Part shown: positions 2,868 through 13,767 of the stretch, piece by piece
Layout: each line of letters starts with the position of its first letter
Position numbering within the stretch: position 1 is the stretch's first letter
Origin: a virus
Lineage: Duplodnaviria > Heunggongvirae > Uroviricota > Caudoviricetes
DNA length: 13,767 nt
Reading direction: 5' to 3' (one strand)
Virus record (IMG/VR): IMGVR_UViG_2531839532_000006
Made by a program: the position numbers and the translations under genes
Notes under the pieces: generated by a model
What the model saw: the letters and a program-made list of their open reading frames with translations, nothing else
Database searches by the model: none
What the model was told of the DNA's origin: nothing

Positions 2868-3107
2868 ATGGGTAGCATTAACCTGCGTATTGACGATGAA
2901 CTTAAAGCGCGTTCTTACGCCGCGCTTGAAAAAATGGGTGTAACTCCTTCTGAAGCGCTTCGTCTCATGCTCGAGTATATCGCTGACAATGAACGCTTGC
3001 CGTTCAAACAGACACTCCTGAGTGATGAAGATGCTGAACTTGTGGAGATAGTGAAAGAACGGCTTCGTAATCCTAAGCCAGTACGTGTGACGCTGGATGA
3101 ACTCTGA
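2868..3107 (+). CDS. relB: RelB antitoxin (ribbon-helix-helix)
   Basis: 79-aa ORF MGSINLRIDDELKARSYAALEKMGVTPSEALRLMLEYIADNERLPF... recognised as E. coli RelB. Its stop overlaps the relE start (ATGA at 3104-3110). Confidence 0.9.
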   Translation: MGSINLRIDDELKARSYAALEKMGVTPSEALRLMLEYIADNERLPFKQTLLSDEDAELVEIVKERLRNPKPVRVTLDEL

Positions 3108-3394
3108 TGGCGTATTTTCTGGATTTTGACGAGCGGGCACTAAAGGAATGGCGAAAGCTGGGCTCGACGGTACGTGAACAGTTGAAAAAGAAGCTGGTTG
3201 AAGTACTTGAGTCACCCCGGATTGAAGCAAACAAGCTCCGTGGTATGCCTGATTGTTACAAGATTAAGCTCCGGTCTTCAGGCTATCGCCTTGTATACCA
3301 GGTTATAGACGAGAAAGTTGTCGTTTTCGTGATTTCTGTTGGGAAAAGAGAACGCTCGGAAGTATATAGCGAGGCGGTCAAACGCATTCTCTGA
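3107..3394 (+). CDS. relE: RelE mRNA-interferase toxin
   Basis: 95-aa ORF MAYFLDFDERALKEWRKLGSTVREQLKKKLVEVLESPRIEANKLRGMPDCYKIKLRSSGYRLVYQVIDEKVVVFVISVGKRERSEVYSEAVKRIL recognised as E. coli RelE, translationally coupled to relB. Confidence 0.9.
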   Translation: MAYFLDFDERALKEWRKLGSTVREQLKKKLVEVLESPRIEANKLRGMPDCYKIKLRSSGYRLVYQVIDEKVVVFVISVGKRERSEVYSEAVKRIL

Positions 3395-3465
3395 ACCAAA
3401 GCATGACATCTCTGTTTCGCACCGAAGGTGACACTTCTGCTTTGCGTTGACAGGAGAAGCAGGCT

Positions 3466-3621
3466 ATGAAGCAGCAAAAGGCGATGTTAATCGCCCTGAT
3501 CGTCATCTGTTTAACCGTCATAGTGACGGCACTGGTAACGAGGAAAGACCTCTGCGAGGTACGAATCCGAACCGGCCAGACGGAGGTCGCTGTCTTCACA
3601 GCTTACGAACCTGAGGAGTAA
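3466..3621 (+). CDS. hokD: Hok-family small membrane toxin (HokD / RelF)
   Basis: 51-aa ORF below the ORF-track cutoff, translated by hand: MKQQKAMLIALIVICLTVIVTALVTRKDLCEVRIRTGQTEVAVFTAYEPEE. RBS GGAGAAGCAGG precedes the ATG at 3466; stop TAA at 3619-3621. One TM helix plus the conserved Hok C-terminus. Confidence 0.8.
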   Translation: MKQQKAMLIALIVICLTVIVTALVTRKDLCEVRIRTGQTEVAVFTAYEPEE

Positions 3622-4062: not shown

Positions 4063-5109
4063 GTGCGGGTATTACTTCGACCTGTTCTGGTACCGGAACT
4101 CGGGCTGGTGATCGTTAAGCCGGGCCGTGAATCCATGCCGGTATTCCACAATACCCGGGTACTGGTGGAGCCGGAACCGAAAAGCATGCGTAATCTGCCG
4201 TCCGGGGTCGTTCCTGCCGTTCGCCAGCCGCTGGTGGAAGACAAAACATTGCTGCCGTTTTTCAGTAACGCACGGGTAATTCGTGCTGCTGGTGGTGCTG
4301 GTGCATTGTCTGACTGGCTGTTGCGCAATATTAAATCCTGCCAGTGGCCACACGGCGATTATCATCACAGCGAAACCGTTATTCACCGTTATGGTACCGG
4401 CGCAATGGTGTTGTGCTGGCACTGCGACAACCAGCTGCGTGACCAGACATCCGAATCACTCGAGCAACTTGCTCATCAAAACCTGTCAGCATGGATGATT
4501 GACGTCATCGGTCACGCAATAAGCGGTACGCAGGAGCGTGAATTATCTCTGGCTGAATTATCCTGGTGGGCGGTCCGCAATCAGGTGGCGGACGCGCTAC
4601 CGGAAGCGGTATTACGTCGTTCGCTGGGGTTGCGTGCGGAAAAAATCCGCTCAATGTACCGTGAAAGCGACATCGTACCGGGAGAGCAGACCGCCACCAG
4701 CATACTGAAGCAGCGCACAAAAAATCTTGCGCCGCTGCCTCACGCCCACCAGCAAAACCCGCCACAGGAAGAGACGGTGGTCAGCATTGCCGTTGATCCT
4801 GAGTCTCCGGAATCTTTCATGAAACGACCTAAACGTCGCCGCTGGGTTAACGAGAAATACACACGCTGGGTGAAGACACAGCCGTGTGCGTGTTGTGGTA
4901 AGCCAGCCGACGATCCCCATCACCTGATTGGTCATGGTCAGGGCGGAATGGGGACAAAATCTCACGATATTTTCACGCTACCGCTGTGTCGGGAGCATCA
5001 CAACGAGCTTCATGCGGATCCTCTGGCGTTCGAAGAAAAGCATGGTTCTCAGGTTGATTTAATTTTTCGTTTTCTTGATCACGCCTTTGCAACTGGCGTG
5101 CTTGGGTAA
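4063..5109 (+). CDS. ydfU: DUF968-type prophage protein (YdfU-like) with a C-terminal Cys/His HNH-like motif
   Basis: 348-aa ORF with GTG start, SD GGAGG 4 nt upstream. C-terminus CACCGKPADDPHHLIGHGQGGMGTKSHDIFTLPLCREHHNELH looks like a zinc-binding HNH-type fold. Position upstream of rusA and Q matches Qin ydfU (349 aa) as I recall it. Confidence 0.55.
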   Translation: MRVLLRPVLVPELGLVIVKPGRESMPVFHNTRVLVEPEPKSMRNLPSGVVPAVRQPLVEDKTLLPFFSNARVIRAAGGAGALSDWLLRNIKSCQWPHGDYHHSETVIHRYGTGAMVLCWHCDNQLRDQTSESLEQLAHQNLSAWMIDVIGHAISGTQERELSLAELSWWAVRNQVADALPEAVLRRSLGLRAEKIRSMYRESDIVPGEQTATSILKQRTKNLAPLPHAHQQNPPQEETVVSIAVDPESPESFMKRPKRRRWVNEKYTRWVKTQPCACCGKPADDPHHLIGHGQGGMGTKSHDIFTLPLCREHHNELHADPLAFEEKHGSQVDLIFRFLDHAFATGVLG

Positions 5110-5121
5110 AAGAGGTGACTG

Positions 5122-5496
5122 ATGCTCATAGATTTGGTTTTACCTTACCCGCCGACGGTGAACACTTACTGGCGACGCCGTGGCAGCACATATTTTGTAT
5201 CAAAAGCCGGGGAGCGTTATCGCCGGGCAGTGGCGCTTATTGTTCGCCAGCAGCGGCTGAAATTAAGCCTGTCCGGAAGGCTGGCGATAAAGGTGATTGC
5301 AGAGCCACCGGATAAGCGTCGTCGCGACCTGGACAATATCCTGAAAGCACCGCTGGATGCGCTGACGCATGCGGGAGTGTTAATGGACGATGAGCAGTTT
5401 GATGAAATCAATATCGTTCGTGGTCAGCCAGTATCTGGAGGACCTCTGGGGGTGAAGATTTACCCCATAATGCATGAAGAGCAGGTCAAAAAATGA
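5122..5496 (+). CDS. rusA: RusA-family Holliday-junction resolvase
   Basis: 124-aa ORF with LPYPPTVNTYWRRRG and RRRDLDNILKAPLDALTHAGVLMDDEQ motifs typical of RusA. SD AGAGGTG upstream; nin-region position immediately before Q. Confidence 0.85.
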   Translation: MLIDLVLPYPPTVNTYWRRRGSTYFVSKAGERYRRAVALIVRQQRLKLSLSGRLAIKVIAEPPDKRRRDLDNILKAPLDALTHAGVLMDDEQFDEINIVRGQPVSGGPLGVKIYPIMHEEQVKK

Positions 5497-6314
5497 AACT
5501 GGAAGATTTACCGAAATACTACTCCCCAAAATCCCCTTGCCTGACCGATGCATCGGCCTCAACGTCAAAAGATGCGCTGAGTATCACTGATGTGATGGCC
5601 GCGCAGGGCATGACACAGAATCGGGCTGAGATGGGGTTTTCTGCGTTCCTGGGGAAAATGGGCATCAGTATGAATGACAGGGCGCGGGCAACAGAATTAC
5701 TGGCAGATTATGCACTCAGTCGGTGCGATCGTGTGGCGGCGTTGAGAAAACTTCCGGCAGAAATAAAACCGGTAGTGATGCGCATTATGGCTACGTATGC
5801 GTTTGAAGATTATGCCCGCAGTGCAGCGAGTAAAAAGCAGTGTCCTTGTTGCCGTGGGGAAAAATTTATTGAAAGCATAGTTTTTACAAACAAGGTCCAG
5901 TATCCGGATGGTAAGCCGCCGGTATGGGCAAAGTGTACGAAAGGTGTGTATCCGTCTTACTGGGAAGAATGGAAAAAAGTCAGGGAGGTGGTAAAAGTTG
6001 CCTGTCCGGAGTGTGGCGGAAAGGGTGAGGTTTCCACCGCCTGTAAGGATTGCCGTGGGCGTGGTGTCGCCATTCATCGTGAAGAGTCGGTAAAACGTGG
6101 TATGCCTGTTATCAGAGACTGCCAGCGTTGTGATGGTCGTGGCTGTGAAAGACTACCATCAACGGAGGCATTTAATGCCATACGCAAAGTGACGAGTGCT
6201 ATCACGCTTGATACGTGGAAAAAATCAGTGAAACGCTTTTACGATACGTTGGTGGTTCGGTTTGACATTGAAGAGGCATGGGCGGAGCGGCAGTTAAAGA
6301 GGGTAACGCGATAG
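5493..6314 (+). CDS. Q: Late-gene antiterminator Q (zinc-ribbon-rich; Q82 / QuuQ-like)
   Basis: 273-aa ORF whose start overlaps the rusA stop (ATGA). Contains CPCCRG, CPECGGKG, CKDCRGRG and CQRCDGRG repeats. A promoter plus intrinsic terminator follow immediately downstream, as expected for Q. Confidence 0.7.
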   Translation: MKLEDLPKYYSPKSPCLTDASASTSKDALSITDVMAAQGMTQNRAEMGFSAFLGKMGISMNDRARATELLADYALSRCDRVAALRKLPAEIKPVVMRIMATYAFEDYARSAASKKQCPCCRGEKFIESIVFTNKVQYPDGKPPVWAKCTKGVYPSYWEEWKKVREVVKVACPECGGKGEVSTACKDCRGRGVAIHREESVKRGMPVIRDCQRCDGRGCERLPSTEAFNAIRKVTSAITLDTWKKSVKRFYDTLVVRFDIEEAWAERQLKRVTR

Positions 6315-6395: not shown

Positions 6396-6418
6396 CCCCG
6401 CCGCCTGGCGGGTTTTTT
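6396..6418 (+). terminator. tR'-like intrinsic terminator downstream of PR'
   Basis: CCCGCC-GCCT-GGCGGG hairpin followed by TTTTTT. Confidence 0.65.
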
Positions 6419-6886: not shown

Positions 6887-7936
6887 ATGCTTAATACTGT
6901 AAAAATATCCAGTTGTGAGTTAATCAACGCCGACTGCCTGGAATTTATCCGGTCGTTACCCGAAAATTCTGTTGACCTGATAGTCACGGACCCGCCGTAC
7001 TTTAAAGTGAAGCCTGAGGGCTGGGATAACCAGTGGAAGGGCGACGATGATTACCTGAAGTGGCTGGACCAGTGTCTGGCGCAGTTCTGGCGGGTGCTGA
7101 AACCTGCCGGAAGTCTTTACCTGTTCTGTGGTCATCGCCTGGCATCTGATATCGAAATCATGATGCGTGAACGCTTCAGTGTGCTGAACCATATTATCTG
7201 GGCGAAGCCGTCCGGACGCTGGAACGGATGCAACAAGGAAAGCCTGCGGGCGTATTTCCCCGCCACAGAGCGCATTCTGTTCGCGGAACATTATCAGGGG
7301 CCGTATCGTCCGAAAGATGCCGGGTATGCGGCGAAGGGCAGTGCACTGAAACAGCATGTGATGGCCCCGCTGATTTCTTACTTTCGTGATGCGCGCGCGG
7401 CCCTGGGGATAACGGCAAAACAGATTGCAGATGCCACAGGAAAGAAAAACATGGTGTCGCACTGGTTCAGTGCCAGTCAGTGGCAGCTACCGAATGAAAG
7501 CGATTATCTGAAATTACAGGCGCTGTTTGCCCGGGTGGCAGAAGAGAAGCATCGGCGTGGTGAACTGGAAAAGCTCCACCACCAGCTGGTGGATACGTAT
7601 ACCTCACTGAACCGGCAGTATGCGGAGCTGCTGAGTGAATATAAACATCTGCGGCGGTATTTTGGCGTGACGGTGCAGGTGCCGTATACCGATGTGTGGA
7701 CGCATAAACCGGTGCAGTTCTATCCCGGGAAACATCCGTGCGAAAAACCGGCAGAAATGCTGCAGCAGATAATCAGCGCAAGCAGTCGTCCGGGTGACCT
7801 GGTTGCAGATTTTTTTATGGGCTCAGGTTCAACGGTAAAAGCTGCACTGGCGCTCGGGCGTCGTGCGATTGGCGTTGAACTGGAGACCGGACGTTTTGAG
7901 CAGACAGTCAGGGAAGTTCAGGATTTAATCGTTTGA
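6887..7936 (+). CDS. Orphan DNA methyltransferase, beta-class (DPPY motif; most likely N6-adenine)
   Basis: 349-aa ORF with motif IV DLIVTDPPYF near the N-terminus and an FxGxG-type AdoMet motif DFFMGSGST near the C-terminus. No adjacent restriction endonuclease candidate. Confidence 0.85.
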   Translation: MLNTVKISSCELINADCLEFIRSLPENSVDLIVTDPPYFKVKPEGWDNQWKGDDDYLKWLDQCLAQFWRVLKPAGSLYLFCGHRLASDIEIMMRERFSVLNHIIWAKPSGRWNGCNKESLRAYFPATERILFAEHYQGPYRPKDAGYAAKGSALKQHVMAPLISYFRDARAALGITAKQIADATGKKNMVSHWFSASQWQLPNESDYLKLQALFARVAEEKHRRGELEKLHHQLVDTYTSLNRQYAELLSEYKHLRRYFGVTVQVPYTDVWTHKPVQFYPGKHPCEKPAEMLQQIISASSRPGDLVADFFMGSGSTVKAALALGRRAIGVELETGRFEQTVREVQDLIV

Positions 7937-7947
7937 AACGGATGAGA

Positions 7948-7976
7948 TTGCAGAATTAATTACGCACCATTATTAT
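7948..7976 (+). promoter_or_regulatory. Candidate sigma-70 promoter for the tRNA genes (-35 TTGCAG, 17-nt spacer, -10 TATTAT)
   Basis: Hexamers with ideal spacing end about 10 nt before the tRNA 5' end. Confidence 0.45.
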
Positions 7977-7985
7977 TCTGCTCCC

Positions 7986-8061
7986 GGCCCTTTAGCTCAG
8001 TGGTGAGAGCGAGCGACTCATAATCGCCAGGTCGCTGGTTCAAATCCAGCAAGGGCCACCA
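7986..8061 (+). tRNA. ileZ: tRNA with CAU anticodon, ileZ-like (tRNA-Ile2 after lysidine modification, or tRNA-Met)
   Basis: Hand-folded cloverleaf: acceptor GGCCCTT / AAGGGCC, D-arm GCTC...GAGC, anticodon loop CTCATAA, T-arm GCTGG-TTCAAAT-CCAGC, encoded CCA. One A-C mismatch at the top of the anticodon stem. Confidence 0.8.
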
Positions 8062-8161
8062 TCACAAACCGCCATTAGCTTATCAGGAAGAGCAGACGAC
8101 ACGATAACAGGGTTGTTGGTGCGGGGGCGGGTCCCCGATGGCGGTCCATTATCGGTATTCA

Positions 8162-8235
8162 GCGTTGTTAGCTCAGCCGGACAGAGCAATTGCCTTCTAA
8201 GCAATCGGTCACTGGTTCGAATCCAGTACAGCGCG
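8162..8235 (+). tRNA. tRNA-Arg (anticodon UCU), argO-like; 3' CCA not encoded
   Basis: Hand-folded cloverleaf: acceptor GCGTTGT / ACAGCGC (one G-U pair), D-arm GCTC...GAGC, anticodon stem ATTGC / GCAAT with loop CTTCTAA, T-arm ACTGG-TTCGAAT-CCAGT. Discriminator G is followed by CTA. Confidence 0.8.
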
Positions 8236-8375
8236 CTATATTCATTCTTCCAGATTCCTTCCGGCAGAGCCTTATACTGAAATATACCTGGCTCAGGATA
8301 TTGTTGAAAATATTTTATGTTTGTCAAAAATAAAAGTTCTGTTAAGTATTGATTGAGTGTTTGTTATACGGTCTA

Positions 8376-8702
8376 ATGGTTTTTTCAGCATTAAATATTT
8401 ATCATTCATATGGTGTGGGTAGAGTGAATATTGATGAGGCGTCGGGGTGTTTCATCCTTAGGCAGCGTATTGATATAGTCAATGCAGGACGAGCAAAGGC
8501 CTTCAGCCGTTTGACAGTTTTGTTCTGTACTCCTGATCGTCTTTCGGGAAGAGACGTTATTATTCTGAATAGTGATGCTATACAGAGGGTTTGCGATGAG
8601 TTCATGGTTGCTAATTCAGAATTATTTGCTCTTGTTCAGGAGTACAACAGAATAGCCAGGACCTGTGGTATGGATGAACTTCGGATTACTCATCTGGGGT
8701 AG
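8376..8702 (+). CDS. Hypothetical protein (first gene of the cargo island), function unknown
   Basis: 108 aa from the ATG at 8376; the ORF track extends it to a TTG at 8349. No clear RBS; AT-rich upstream region with a weak promoter-like TTGTCA at 8321. Confidence 0.35.
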   Translation: MVFSALNIYHSYGVGRVNIDEASGCFILRQRIDIVNAGRAKAFSRLTVLFCTPDRLSGRDVIILNSDAIQRVCDEFMVANSELFALVQEYNRIARTCGMDELRITHLG

Positions 8703-9093
8703 ATACATATCTGGATTATCACTTGTTACGGTAAAAAGTGATTGCTTACTGTTTTTGTGAGTGGCATTGCAGCAGCCGGATAATGTCAGTGCTGGCTGAC
8801 GGTGTGCTGGTGGCGGGTGTGGTGGTTGTTGCTTTCCCGTTGCTGAAAAAGAAAACGCCAGACTGTTAGCCGGGTATCAGTTAGCGGGAGAAATTTTTAA
8901 ATACTTCACAATTCAGGCGGTTGACTGTTGTCTGGTTTGCGGGGAGTTTGTTAAAAGAAACTGGCATGGTGAATCCCCCTGTGCGGAGGGGCAATCAGCG
9001 AGTAGGTATATGGGATAATCGCGGATTCAGGTGCTGGTACTGAATTCACCGGGAGGCACCCGGCACCATGCAATGGCACATAGCGCCACTCTC

Positions 9094-9120
9094 CAGCCCC
9101 TCTCCGGAGGGGCTGTTTAT
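9094..9120 (+). terminator. Intrinsic terminator inside the cargo island
   Basis: CAGCCCCTC-TCCG-GAGGGGCTG hairpin followed by TTTATATTGATTTT. Confidence 0.5.
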
Positions 9121-9146
9121 ATTGATTTTGTCAGATGTGAGTAAAC

Positions 9147-9180
9147 TCCTTATGGACTTTGTTGTTTTAGTCCATAAGGA
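9147..9180 (-). terminator. Perfect 12-bp stem-loop overlapping the 3' end of the minus-strand ORF (possible terminator)
   Basis: TCCTTATGGACT-(10-nt loop)-AGTCCATAAGGA. On the minus strand it is followed by GTTTACTC, only moderately U-rich. It encodes the last residues (PYGLKQQSP) of ORF 9150..9485. Confidence 0.4.
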
Positions 9181-9485
9181 CATATTTGCAGAGTGCAACG
9201 GTTATTAAAGCATTCATTCAATACGTTATCTGTATTTGTAGGACATTCCTGGCTGTTTTTGATTAAATTCCAGAATGTTTTATTGAATGGTACTACGTTG
9301 TAAATGGTTACAGGTAGCACTTTGTTATTGAGCATGATACCTGTGTGAGTCAGTGTAAATATACTTTCAGGAGGTAAGAAAGCATCCGATTGATACCAGA
9401 TTATTAATTTTATTTTACTCCATATGACTGAAAAAGATATTCCGCATGATGGCTGGATAACTGTATCAATCACAATCCACTTCAT
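9150..9485 (-). CDS. Hypothetical protein in AT-rich cargo DNA, antisense to the late operon
   Basis: 111-aa ORF with a plausible RBS AAGGAAG about 5 nt before the ATG on the minus strand, and a possible -10 TATACT upstream. No signal peptide recognised; several Cys near the C-terminus. Confidence 0.4.
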
Positions 9486-13509: not shown

Positions 13510-13767
13510 GTAAGCGACTCGTCAGAACCGTATTGATATTTACTGAGAGCTCAGATCAACTTTCCAGGGCAACAGATCGCGTACCCGGTTTGCCGGCCAG
13601 TCCTGGATATGTTCAATGACGTAACGCAGCCACTTTTCTGGCTCCACATTGTTCAGACGGCATGTGCCGATCAGCGAGTACAACACCGCCGCATGTTCAC
13701 CACCGCTGTCGGAACCCGCGAACATCCAGTTTTTCCGGCCTACGGCCACTCCCCGTAAGGCGTTCTC
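13510..13767 (-). mobile_element. IS66-family insertion sequence, terminal part (GTAAGCG terminus), extending beyond the window
   Basis: Similarity to lambda cos ends at 13509. 13510 begins GTAAGCGACTCG, the terminal motif typical of IS66-family ends, and an IS66-type transposase C-terminus is encoded about 30 bp inside. Confidence 0.7.
13540..13767 (-). CDS. IS66-family transposase (TnpC), C-terminal portion; 5' part lies beyond the window
   Basis: Minus-strand frame is open to the window edge and reads ENALRGVAVGRKNWMFAGSDSGGEHAAVLYSLIGTCRLNNVEPEKWLRYVIEHIQDWPANRVRDLLPWKVDLSSQ, the conserved IS66 TnpC C-terminus. Confidence 0.75.
   Translation of the reverse strand, partial: ENALRGVAVGRKNWMFAGSDSGGEHAAVLYSLIGTCRLNNVEPEKWLRYVIEHIQDWPANRVRDLLPWKVDLSSQ

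Follow-up and report, generated by a model that had tools for sequence, protein, structure and literature searches.

Gene content of the locus

The window, that is, the whole stretch of 13,767 nucleotides analysed (IMG/VR record IMGVR_UViG_2531839532_000006), corresponds to the late region of a lambdoid, Qin-like E. coli prophage, and its features are collected in Table 1. The prophage segment was bracketed by the transposase-like ORF at the left end and the IS66-type fragment at the right end. Between the two tRNA genes, ARAGORN and Rfam called no tRNA in the 100-nt spacer (8062-8161). Stx-type phages often have three tRNAs at this position, and by analogy the spacer may be a decayed third tRNA.

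Table 1. Features of the window and the coding region studied (positions are those of the window).
Feature	Coordinates	Strand	Evidence or remark
Transposase-like ORF, 437 aa	253-1566	+	left end; identified from its translation
relB/relE-like genes and Hok-like toxin ORF	2868-3621 (Hok-like 3466-3621)		upstream end of the gene order; from translations and annotation analogy
DUF968 protein, RusA			follow the Hok-like ORF
Q antiterminator	5493-6314
tR'-like terminator	6397-6412		after Q
N6 DNA methylase	6887-7936
tRNA, CAT anticodon	7986-8061	+	ARAGORN, Rfam; tRNA-Ile according to PGAP on an identical locus
tRNA-Arg(TCT)	8162-8236	+	ARAGORN, Rfam; PGAP on an identical locus
Promoter-like site	8304-8331		promoter scan, 9/12
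ORF, longest form	8349-8702	+	TTG 8349 to stop 8700-8702; 117 codons
In-frame upstream extension with TTG 8349 and ATG 8376	8349-8423	+	most likely an untranslated leader
Antisense ORF, 67 aa	8402-8605	antisense to the ORF	95 aa in the E. coli EC581 relative (L006)
Weak Shine-Dalgarno-like GGGT	8417-8420	+	3 nt (aga) before GTG 8424
Conserved coding core	8424-8702	+	GTG start, 92 codons and TAG stop; product MNIDEASGCFILRQRIDIVNAGRAKAFSRLTVLFCTPDRLSGRDVIILNSDAIQRVCDEFMVANSELFALVQEYNRIARTCGMDELRITHLG
DUF3927 ORF, small, hydrophobic, 43 aa	8738-8869	+	Pfam, 95.6 bits; phrog_1470 'TciB-like', 7.8e-13
STnc100 prophage sRNA	8935-9124	+	Rfam RF02076, 132.4 bits; full-length
Intrinsic terminator of STnc100	9094-9115	+	terminator scan; first strong terminator downstream of the ORF
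iraM	9150-9485	-	intact anti-adaptor gene; NF007393, 162 bits against a cut-off of 121
DUF1737, P21-type holin, DUF1327, lysozyme, Rz			after iraM
IS66-type transposase, C-terminal fragment (from its translation)	13540-13749	-	right end

The ORF studied here starts, in its longest form, 112 nt past the end of tRNA-Arg(TCT). It was drawn to our attention by an earlier note made from the sequence alone, which described it as a protein gene of 108-117 aa. The ORF exists as described there, and the 108-aa peptide quoted in the note is its translation from ATG 8376. The note also called it the first ORF of a cargo island, and it does open an AT-rich stretch after the phage tRNAs: GC content was 0.37-0.41 over 8150-8750, compared with 0.50-0.55 over 6950-8300 (about 0.53 upstream). 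Across 80 close relatives in IMG/VR, the block consisting of the two tRNAs, the ORF, DUF3927 and STnc100 was essentially invariant, with the tRNAs linked to the ORF in nearly all and the DUF3927 gene, which starts 35 nt downstream of the ORF in the window, following the core in 78. The methylase and iraM were variably present among the same relatives. The iraM patch was very AT-rich (GC 0.32-0.35), and iraM occurred in only part of the related prophages. STnc100 started 66 nt after the DUF3927 ORF; in E. coli JNE120393 (L005) the homologous cargo region carried five copies of it, four of them in tandem (2165-2377 and 4137-5116 of that locus). A 2026 preprint ties STnc100 to the PasD prophage sRNAs (doi 10.64898/2026.05.13.724894).

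Conservation of the ORF as a protein-coding gene

The window contained 102 ORFs of at least 40 aa, long antisense ones included (one of 168 aa lies within the methylase gene), so the length of the ORF was no proof of coding. It was accepted as real on comparative evidence, namely a sole open frame, low dN/dS and a third-position bias of polymorphism. Seven diverged lineages were compared: the window, an E. coli locus designated L003, E. coli EC581 (L006), an E. coli plasmid (L008), Citrobacter (L012), Morganella (L016) and Serratia (L018). The plus frame alone had no stop in all seven. Against L003 (64.7% nucleotide identity), dN/dS was 0.32 for the whole ORF and 0.27 for codons 26-117, with differences at the three codon positions of 35/33/55 and 24/23/43 respectively, whereas shifted frames gave dN/dS values near 1 and 7-15 stops. 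Polymorphism was measured in 78 near-identical copies from IMG/VR and RefSeq, representing 21 haplotypes. Variable sites numbered 9 in the 276 nt of the core, compared with 12 over the 112 nt of spacer upstream. Of the nine, seven fell at codon position 3 (binomial P of about 0.008) and six were synonymous. Together, these comparisons indicated that the core is under purifying selection and is neither degraded nor non-coding, and the ORF is probably a real gene of 92 codons, with GTG 8424 as its start and 8700-8702 as its stop.

The earlier note had suggested that the gene may be degraded, and had proposed that stops or frameshifts throughout the frame in orthologous regions would mark it as a non-coding remnant. 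The frame was intact from 8424 onward in every diverged lineage and in each of the 21 haplotypes. A decaying pseudogene, or a non-coding remnant whose frame is open by chance, would fit the poor ribosome-binding site, the AT-rich surroundings and the lack of RefSeq/PGAP annotation of the ORF in more than 1000 genomes. Such a remnant is nevertheless very unlikely, in view of the purifying selection, the exclusive openness of the plus frame in every lineage, a confidently predicted fold (see below), and protein homologues of 21-43% identity in five other genera (Citrobacter, Salmonella, Morganella, Serratia and Xenorhabdus) that have a canonical Shine-Dalgarno sequence and an ATG.

We also considered whether the conserved element was the antisense ORF, a structured RNA or a cis-regulatory element. 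One antisense frame had the same third-position pattern, with a dN/dS of 0.30, and was entirely open in L006; however, it contained 2-6 stops in each of the other six lineages, and the antisense ORF was rejected on this ground. As for RNA, Rfam had no match in 8237-8934 even at E values up to 1, folding around the start was no different from, and no better than, that of shuffled sequence (z from -0.26 to +0.81), and the distant homologues were alike in protein but not in nucleotide sequence. An element of any of these kinds is thus extremely unlikely to account for the conservation.

Position of the start codon

The earlier note left the start open between TTG 8349 and ATG 8376 and proposed an alignment of orthologous loci to see which was conserved. 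In the light of the aligned orthologous loci both are probably wrong, and the choice between them was most likely a false one: the comparison favoured a third start, GTG 8424, located 75 bases downstream of TTG 8349, which most likely is the conserved start and would give a product of 92 aa. The segment 8349-8423 most likely behaves as a non-coding leader. In codons 1-25 the differences from L003 were spread 11/10/12 over the codon positions, with a dN/dS of 0.60 and no third-position bias, and ATG 8376 aligned with an Asn codon in L003. Among close haplotypes, one had a 1-nt deletion at 8380, and the other changes in this segment were three nonsynonymous and one synonymous. Indels lay directly upstream of the invariant GTGAATATTGATGA in two diverged E. 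coli loci, 3 nt being deleted in L004 and 4 nt in L005, where the deletion brings four stops in frame upstream of the GTG. L006 had an in-frame TGA 11 codons before the GTG with no start codon between. Most of 80 STEC-type genomes, in which the ORF is linked to an AraC-type gene (see below), matched the 1098-nt query over 1094 or 1093 nt, a sign of indels at the same indel-prone spot. The distant homologues, of 91-99 aa (106-110 aa where a short, unrelated extension is present), all aligned from residue 26, and PGAP annotates the L006 relative as the 92-aa, GTG-started protein WP_001017777.1.

The note had also reported no canonical ribosome-binding site. This held for TTG 8349 and ATG 8376, both of which lack a Shine-Dalgarno sequence, but GTG 8424 is preceded by the weak GGGT. 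Duplex energies with the anti-Shine-Dalgarno tail of 16S rRNA were -0.9 kcal/mol for TTG 8349, -2.4 for ATG 8376 and -4.5 for GTG 8424, the best of the three, on a scale where the window had a median of -2.8 and a 10th percentile of -6.2 kcal/mol. L006 had AGGAG (-6.9 kcal/mol) aligned with the GGGT of the window, followed by GTG, and L003-type relatives had essentially no Shine-Dalgarno sequence at this position (-2.8 kcal/mol). Initiation at GTG 8424 would thus be weak, and the sequence gave no sign of the unusual initiation mechanism raised in the note: a GTG with GGGT 3 nt upstream needs none.

It could be argued that the gene is real but that its product in this lineage is the 108- or 117-aa form, started at ATG 8376 or TTG 8349, with a hydrophobic N-terminal extension of 16-25 residues peculiar to the lineage. 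The window and 20 of the 21 close haplotypes keep the frame open from 8349, L003 retains an in-frame TTG within a shared TATTGATTGA context, the profile of PHROG 2873 was built on the 108-aa form, and gene callers yielded clusters of 108, 117 and 118 aa. Against this stand the poor pairing of both starts, the Asn codon in L003, the relaxed divergence of 8349-8423, its frameshifts or stops in L005, L006 and one close haplotype, the indels implied for most of the AraC-linked genomes, and its absence from all distant homologues. In an AlphaFold model of the 117-aa form, residues 1-27 had a pLDDT below 50, while the core still folded. The longer product is therefore quite unlikely, and the 92-aa form is used below.

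A putative promoter, TTGATT-N17-TCTAAT, overlapped TTG 8349 and ATG 8376. It was considered because the false upstream ATG of the Serratia homologue sits in its own TATAATG -10 element. The candidate was dropped: position 2 of its -10 is not the key A, the corresponding L003 sequence was worse, and the promoter scan did not list it.

Protein family and predicted structure

The protein belongs to an already catalogued, uncharacterised PHROG family, phrog_2873 (E = 3.5e-70, 234 bits, residues 10-117 of the 117-codon form against positions 1-108 of 108). The match was full-length, but the PHROG model represents the 108-aa ATG form and the conserved protein has 92 aa. A divergent relative (P0014) also matched phrog_2873 (7e-48), and both matched phrog_4827 weakly (1.2e-4 for the window protein and 5.5e-7 for the relative). 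Membership is silent on mechanism because the family has no functional annotation. In line with the remark of the note that no motif was recognisable, Pfam gave the window protein only a RHIM hit of 12.8 bits, below the cut-off of 20, and no match consistent among 22 family members. NCBIfam and PADLOC had no match for the window protein; one family member matched HEC-06 in PADLOC at E = 9e-4. Searches of PDB sequences with the protein and with the 22-member alignment returned nothing significant, and literature searches on TciA/TciB, DUF3927, the protein accessions and the PHROG identifiers found nothing useful.

Structure prediction, a check that the note had proposed, was carried out with AlphaFold2 on the 22-sequence alignment and gave a confident model (pLDDT 87.6, pTM 0.75). 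Helices 3-33 and 50-81 formed an antiparallel two-helix hairpin followed by a short tail, and the loop between them, of lower confidence, carried the conserved motif TPDRxSG. Residues R23, N64 and N75 were invariant and C9, E66 and A78 nearly so. The 92-aa core had a GRAVY of 0.11, a net charge of -1.4 and two amphipathic helices, and judged by these properties it had no hydrophobic or membrane segment and no signal peptide. The predicted fold is a soluble antiparallel two-helix coiled-coil hairpin. Structural matches were generic: the archaeal prefoldin beta subunit (1fxk_A) and Rop-like or designed helical bundles resembled the model only as antiparallel hairpins. Membership in the prefoldins was rejected, the identity being 4%, the fold match that of any such hairpin, and no Pfam prefoldin match being found.

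Distribution of the family

Of 5426 complete E. coli genomes, 1187 contained the 524 nt around the ORF with 95-100% identity. A more sensitive search found the ORF in 1314 of them, 128 at only 60-80% identity, and carriage is thus about 24% (roughly 1300 of 5426). E. coli K-12 MG1655 had no copy between icdC and iraM, and ETEC strains were among the carriers of a 100% identical locus. At the ORF locus PGAP annotates only the DUF3927 gene, and more than 1000 complete E. coli genomes lack a call for the ORF; the locus tags of strain 602354, for example, jump from CXX15_RS19635 to RS19645 between tRNA-Arg and DUF3927. Profile searches found only 21 proteins among 1.84 billion representatives and 40 in a set of 5.8 billion proteins, including proteins of 91-99 aa in Citrobacter, Salmonella, Morganella and Serratia and one of 110 aa in Xenorhabdus. 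The family is very small, limited to the Enterobacterales and carried on mobile elements.

Diverged E. coli copies occurred in other contexts. In EC581 (L006) the ORF, a 76%-identical variant, lies downstream of a methylase with no tRNAs, and a fragment was retrieved from L007. In L003, L004 and L005 the ORF (56% amino acid and 65% nucleotide identity for the L003 type) lies 22 nt after the gene of a YdeO/GadX-like AraC regulator. This 241-aa regulator (phrog_1450; L003 164-889, L005 2754-3479) is similar to Psr/PatE, the acid-resistance regulators of EHEC prophages, and its gene may share an operon with the ORF homologue. The AraC-ORF arrangement was found in 80 genomes, mostly of Shiga-toxigenic E. 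coli.

Distant members in Citrobacter, Salmonella, Morganella and Serratia occupy the same slot between Q and the lysis genes, often right after phage tRNAs. Other members lie upstream of DNA-circulation and baseplate genes in Mu-like elements, or adjoin type IV pilus genes. One (P0035, L008 5001-5276) was found beside a K88-like fimbrial operon on a Rep3 plasmid. This plasmid member is preceded by a tRNA-Thr gene (L008 4347-4419), which suggests that a fragment of a phage cargo region moved onto the plasmid.

Moron-like behaviour and predicted expression

Since members are scattered over unrelated elements and sites (the lambdoid Q-to-lysis slot, a Mu-like baseplate cluster, a type IV pilus locus and a fimbrial Rep3 plasmid), the ORF appears to behave as accessory cargo of the moron type carried by lambdoid phages, not as a core late function. 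A late-operon function locked to this position was rejected, given the members in Mu-like tail clusters and on plasmids. The Q-to-lysis slot is the position of stx in Stx phages. The window ORF shares with the lambdoid morons of this slot its position (Q, tRNAs, cargo, then holin, lysozyme and Rz), the AT-rich break and the sporadic presence. It differs in having neither a promoter above chance level nor a directly flanking terminator, and distant members of the family have both. By inspection, the Serratia, Morganella and Citrobacter genes had a TATAAT-like -10 element (TATAAT or TACAAT), an AAGGA or AGGGA Shine-Dalgarno sequence and an ATG, with hairpin-plus-T-run terminators on both sides, an arrangement classical for morons.

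In the window the promoter scan found a total of six promoter-like sites, compared with a mean of 6.7 in shuffled sequence; the one between the tRNAs and the ORF is listed in Table 1. No terminator-like site was found between 8236 and 8424. Because no terminator separates the tRNAs from the ORF and the promoter-like count is at chance, we infer that the Q-antiterminated late transcript would span the ORF as well as the two tRNAs, DUF3927 and STnc100. Its translation would probably be inefficient, starting from a GTG with a weak Shine-Dalgarno sequence.

The Serratia homologue carries a perfect palindrome of 16 bp, TTCAATAC|GTATTGAA, between its -10 element and its Shine-Dalgarno sequence (L018, approximately 4975-4990), of which Morganella retains 14 of 16 positions (L016, approximately 4975-4990). 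The palindrome may be a candidate operator for a regulator.

Possible functions of the 92-aa protein

A non-enzymatic binder was proposed for two reasons: the protein lacks a catalytic motif, a signal peptide and a membrane segment, and polar Asn residues lie inside the predicted coiled coil. The 92-aa protein would act stoichiometrically, through self-association, through a binding partner of the host or of a competing element, or through both. Reasoning in this way from fold class, we tentatively regard it as possible that the protein is a coiled-coil binder which acts stoichiometrically on a protein of the host or of a competitor. IraM, an established anti-adaptor, offers a parallel: it is a small soluble protein of similar size from the same cargo island, also with no enzymatic motif. 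The two have no sequence similarity, and the role that is established for IraM is only inferred for the ORF product.

A wider proposal is that the hairpin founds a family of small coiled-coil effectors, borne by lambdoid and Mu-like phages and by plasmids of the Enterobacterales, that neutralise or re-programme a specific host or competitor protein; about 24% of complete E. coli genomes carry the ORF, which RefSeq annotation misses systematically. Examples of such targets would be a defence component, a stress-regulator adaptor or, in STEC, a partner of the Psr-like AraC regulator. As a whole this proposal is doubtful.

Two further genes were seen in the same cargo slot beside DUF3927, one encoding a protein with a TolA C-terminal domain in phage mEp460 (L002 4999-5427, 82.6 bits) and the other a TerB-like protein in Citrobacter (L012 5489-5914). 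These neighbours hint at protection of the envelope, or protection against colicins or phage entry, within the slot. The ORF protein could be thought to belong, with the membrane peptide of the adjacent DUF3927 gene, to a cassette for envelope protection or exclusion, of which the TolA-C-terminal or TerB-like proteins would sometimes be further members. The PHROG label of DUF3927 reads 'TciB-like, inhibition of cell division or resistance to colicin'. DUF3927 follows the ORF in nearly all close relatives, and the order is family member, TerB-like gene, DUF3927 in Citrobacter and ORF, DUF3927, TolA C-terminal domain gene in mEp460. However, the order of the three genes varies, co-location by chance is expected in a cargo hot spot, the ORF protein has no membrane segment, and DUF3927 does not adjoin the members in Morganella, Serratia, Salmonella and Xenorhabdus or on plasmids, which together make the cassette unlikely.

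Significance

The slot between Q and the lysis genes carries Shiga toxin, IraM, Psr-type regulators and prophage sRNAs, and the ORF adds to it one more small protein with a confidently predicted fold. Nothing so far points to a surprising mechanism, and the ORF is otherwise ordinary. The practical value of the finding lies in annotation: PGAP passes over a gene under purifying selection in most of its roughly 1300 carriers among 5426 complete E. coli genomes, and where gene callers do call it, the start is almost always contradicted by the comparative data. The useful corrections are the start at GTG 8424, in place of 8349 or 8376, and the omission from RefSeq in most carriers. If a binding partner of the small coiled-coil protein were found, it could expose a new interaction between prophage and host or between prophage and phage.
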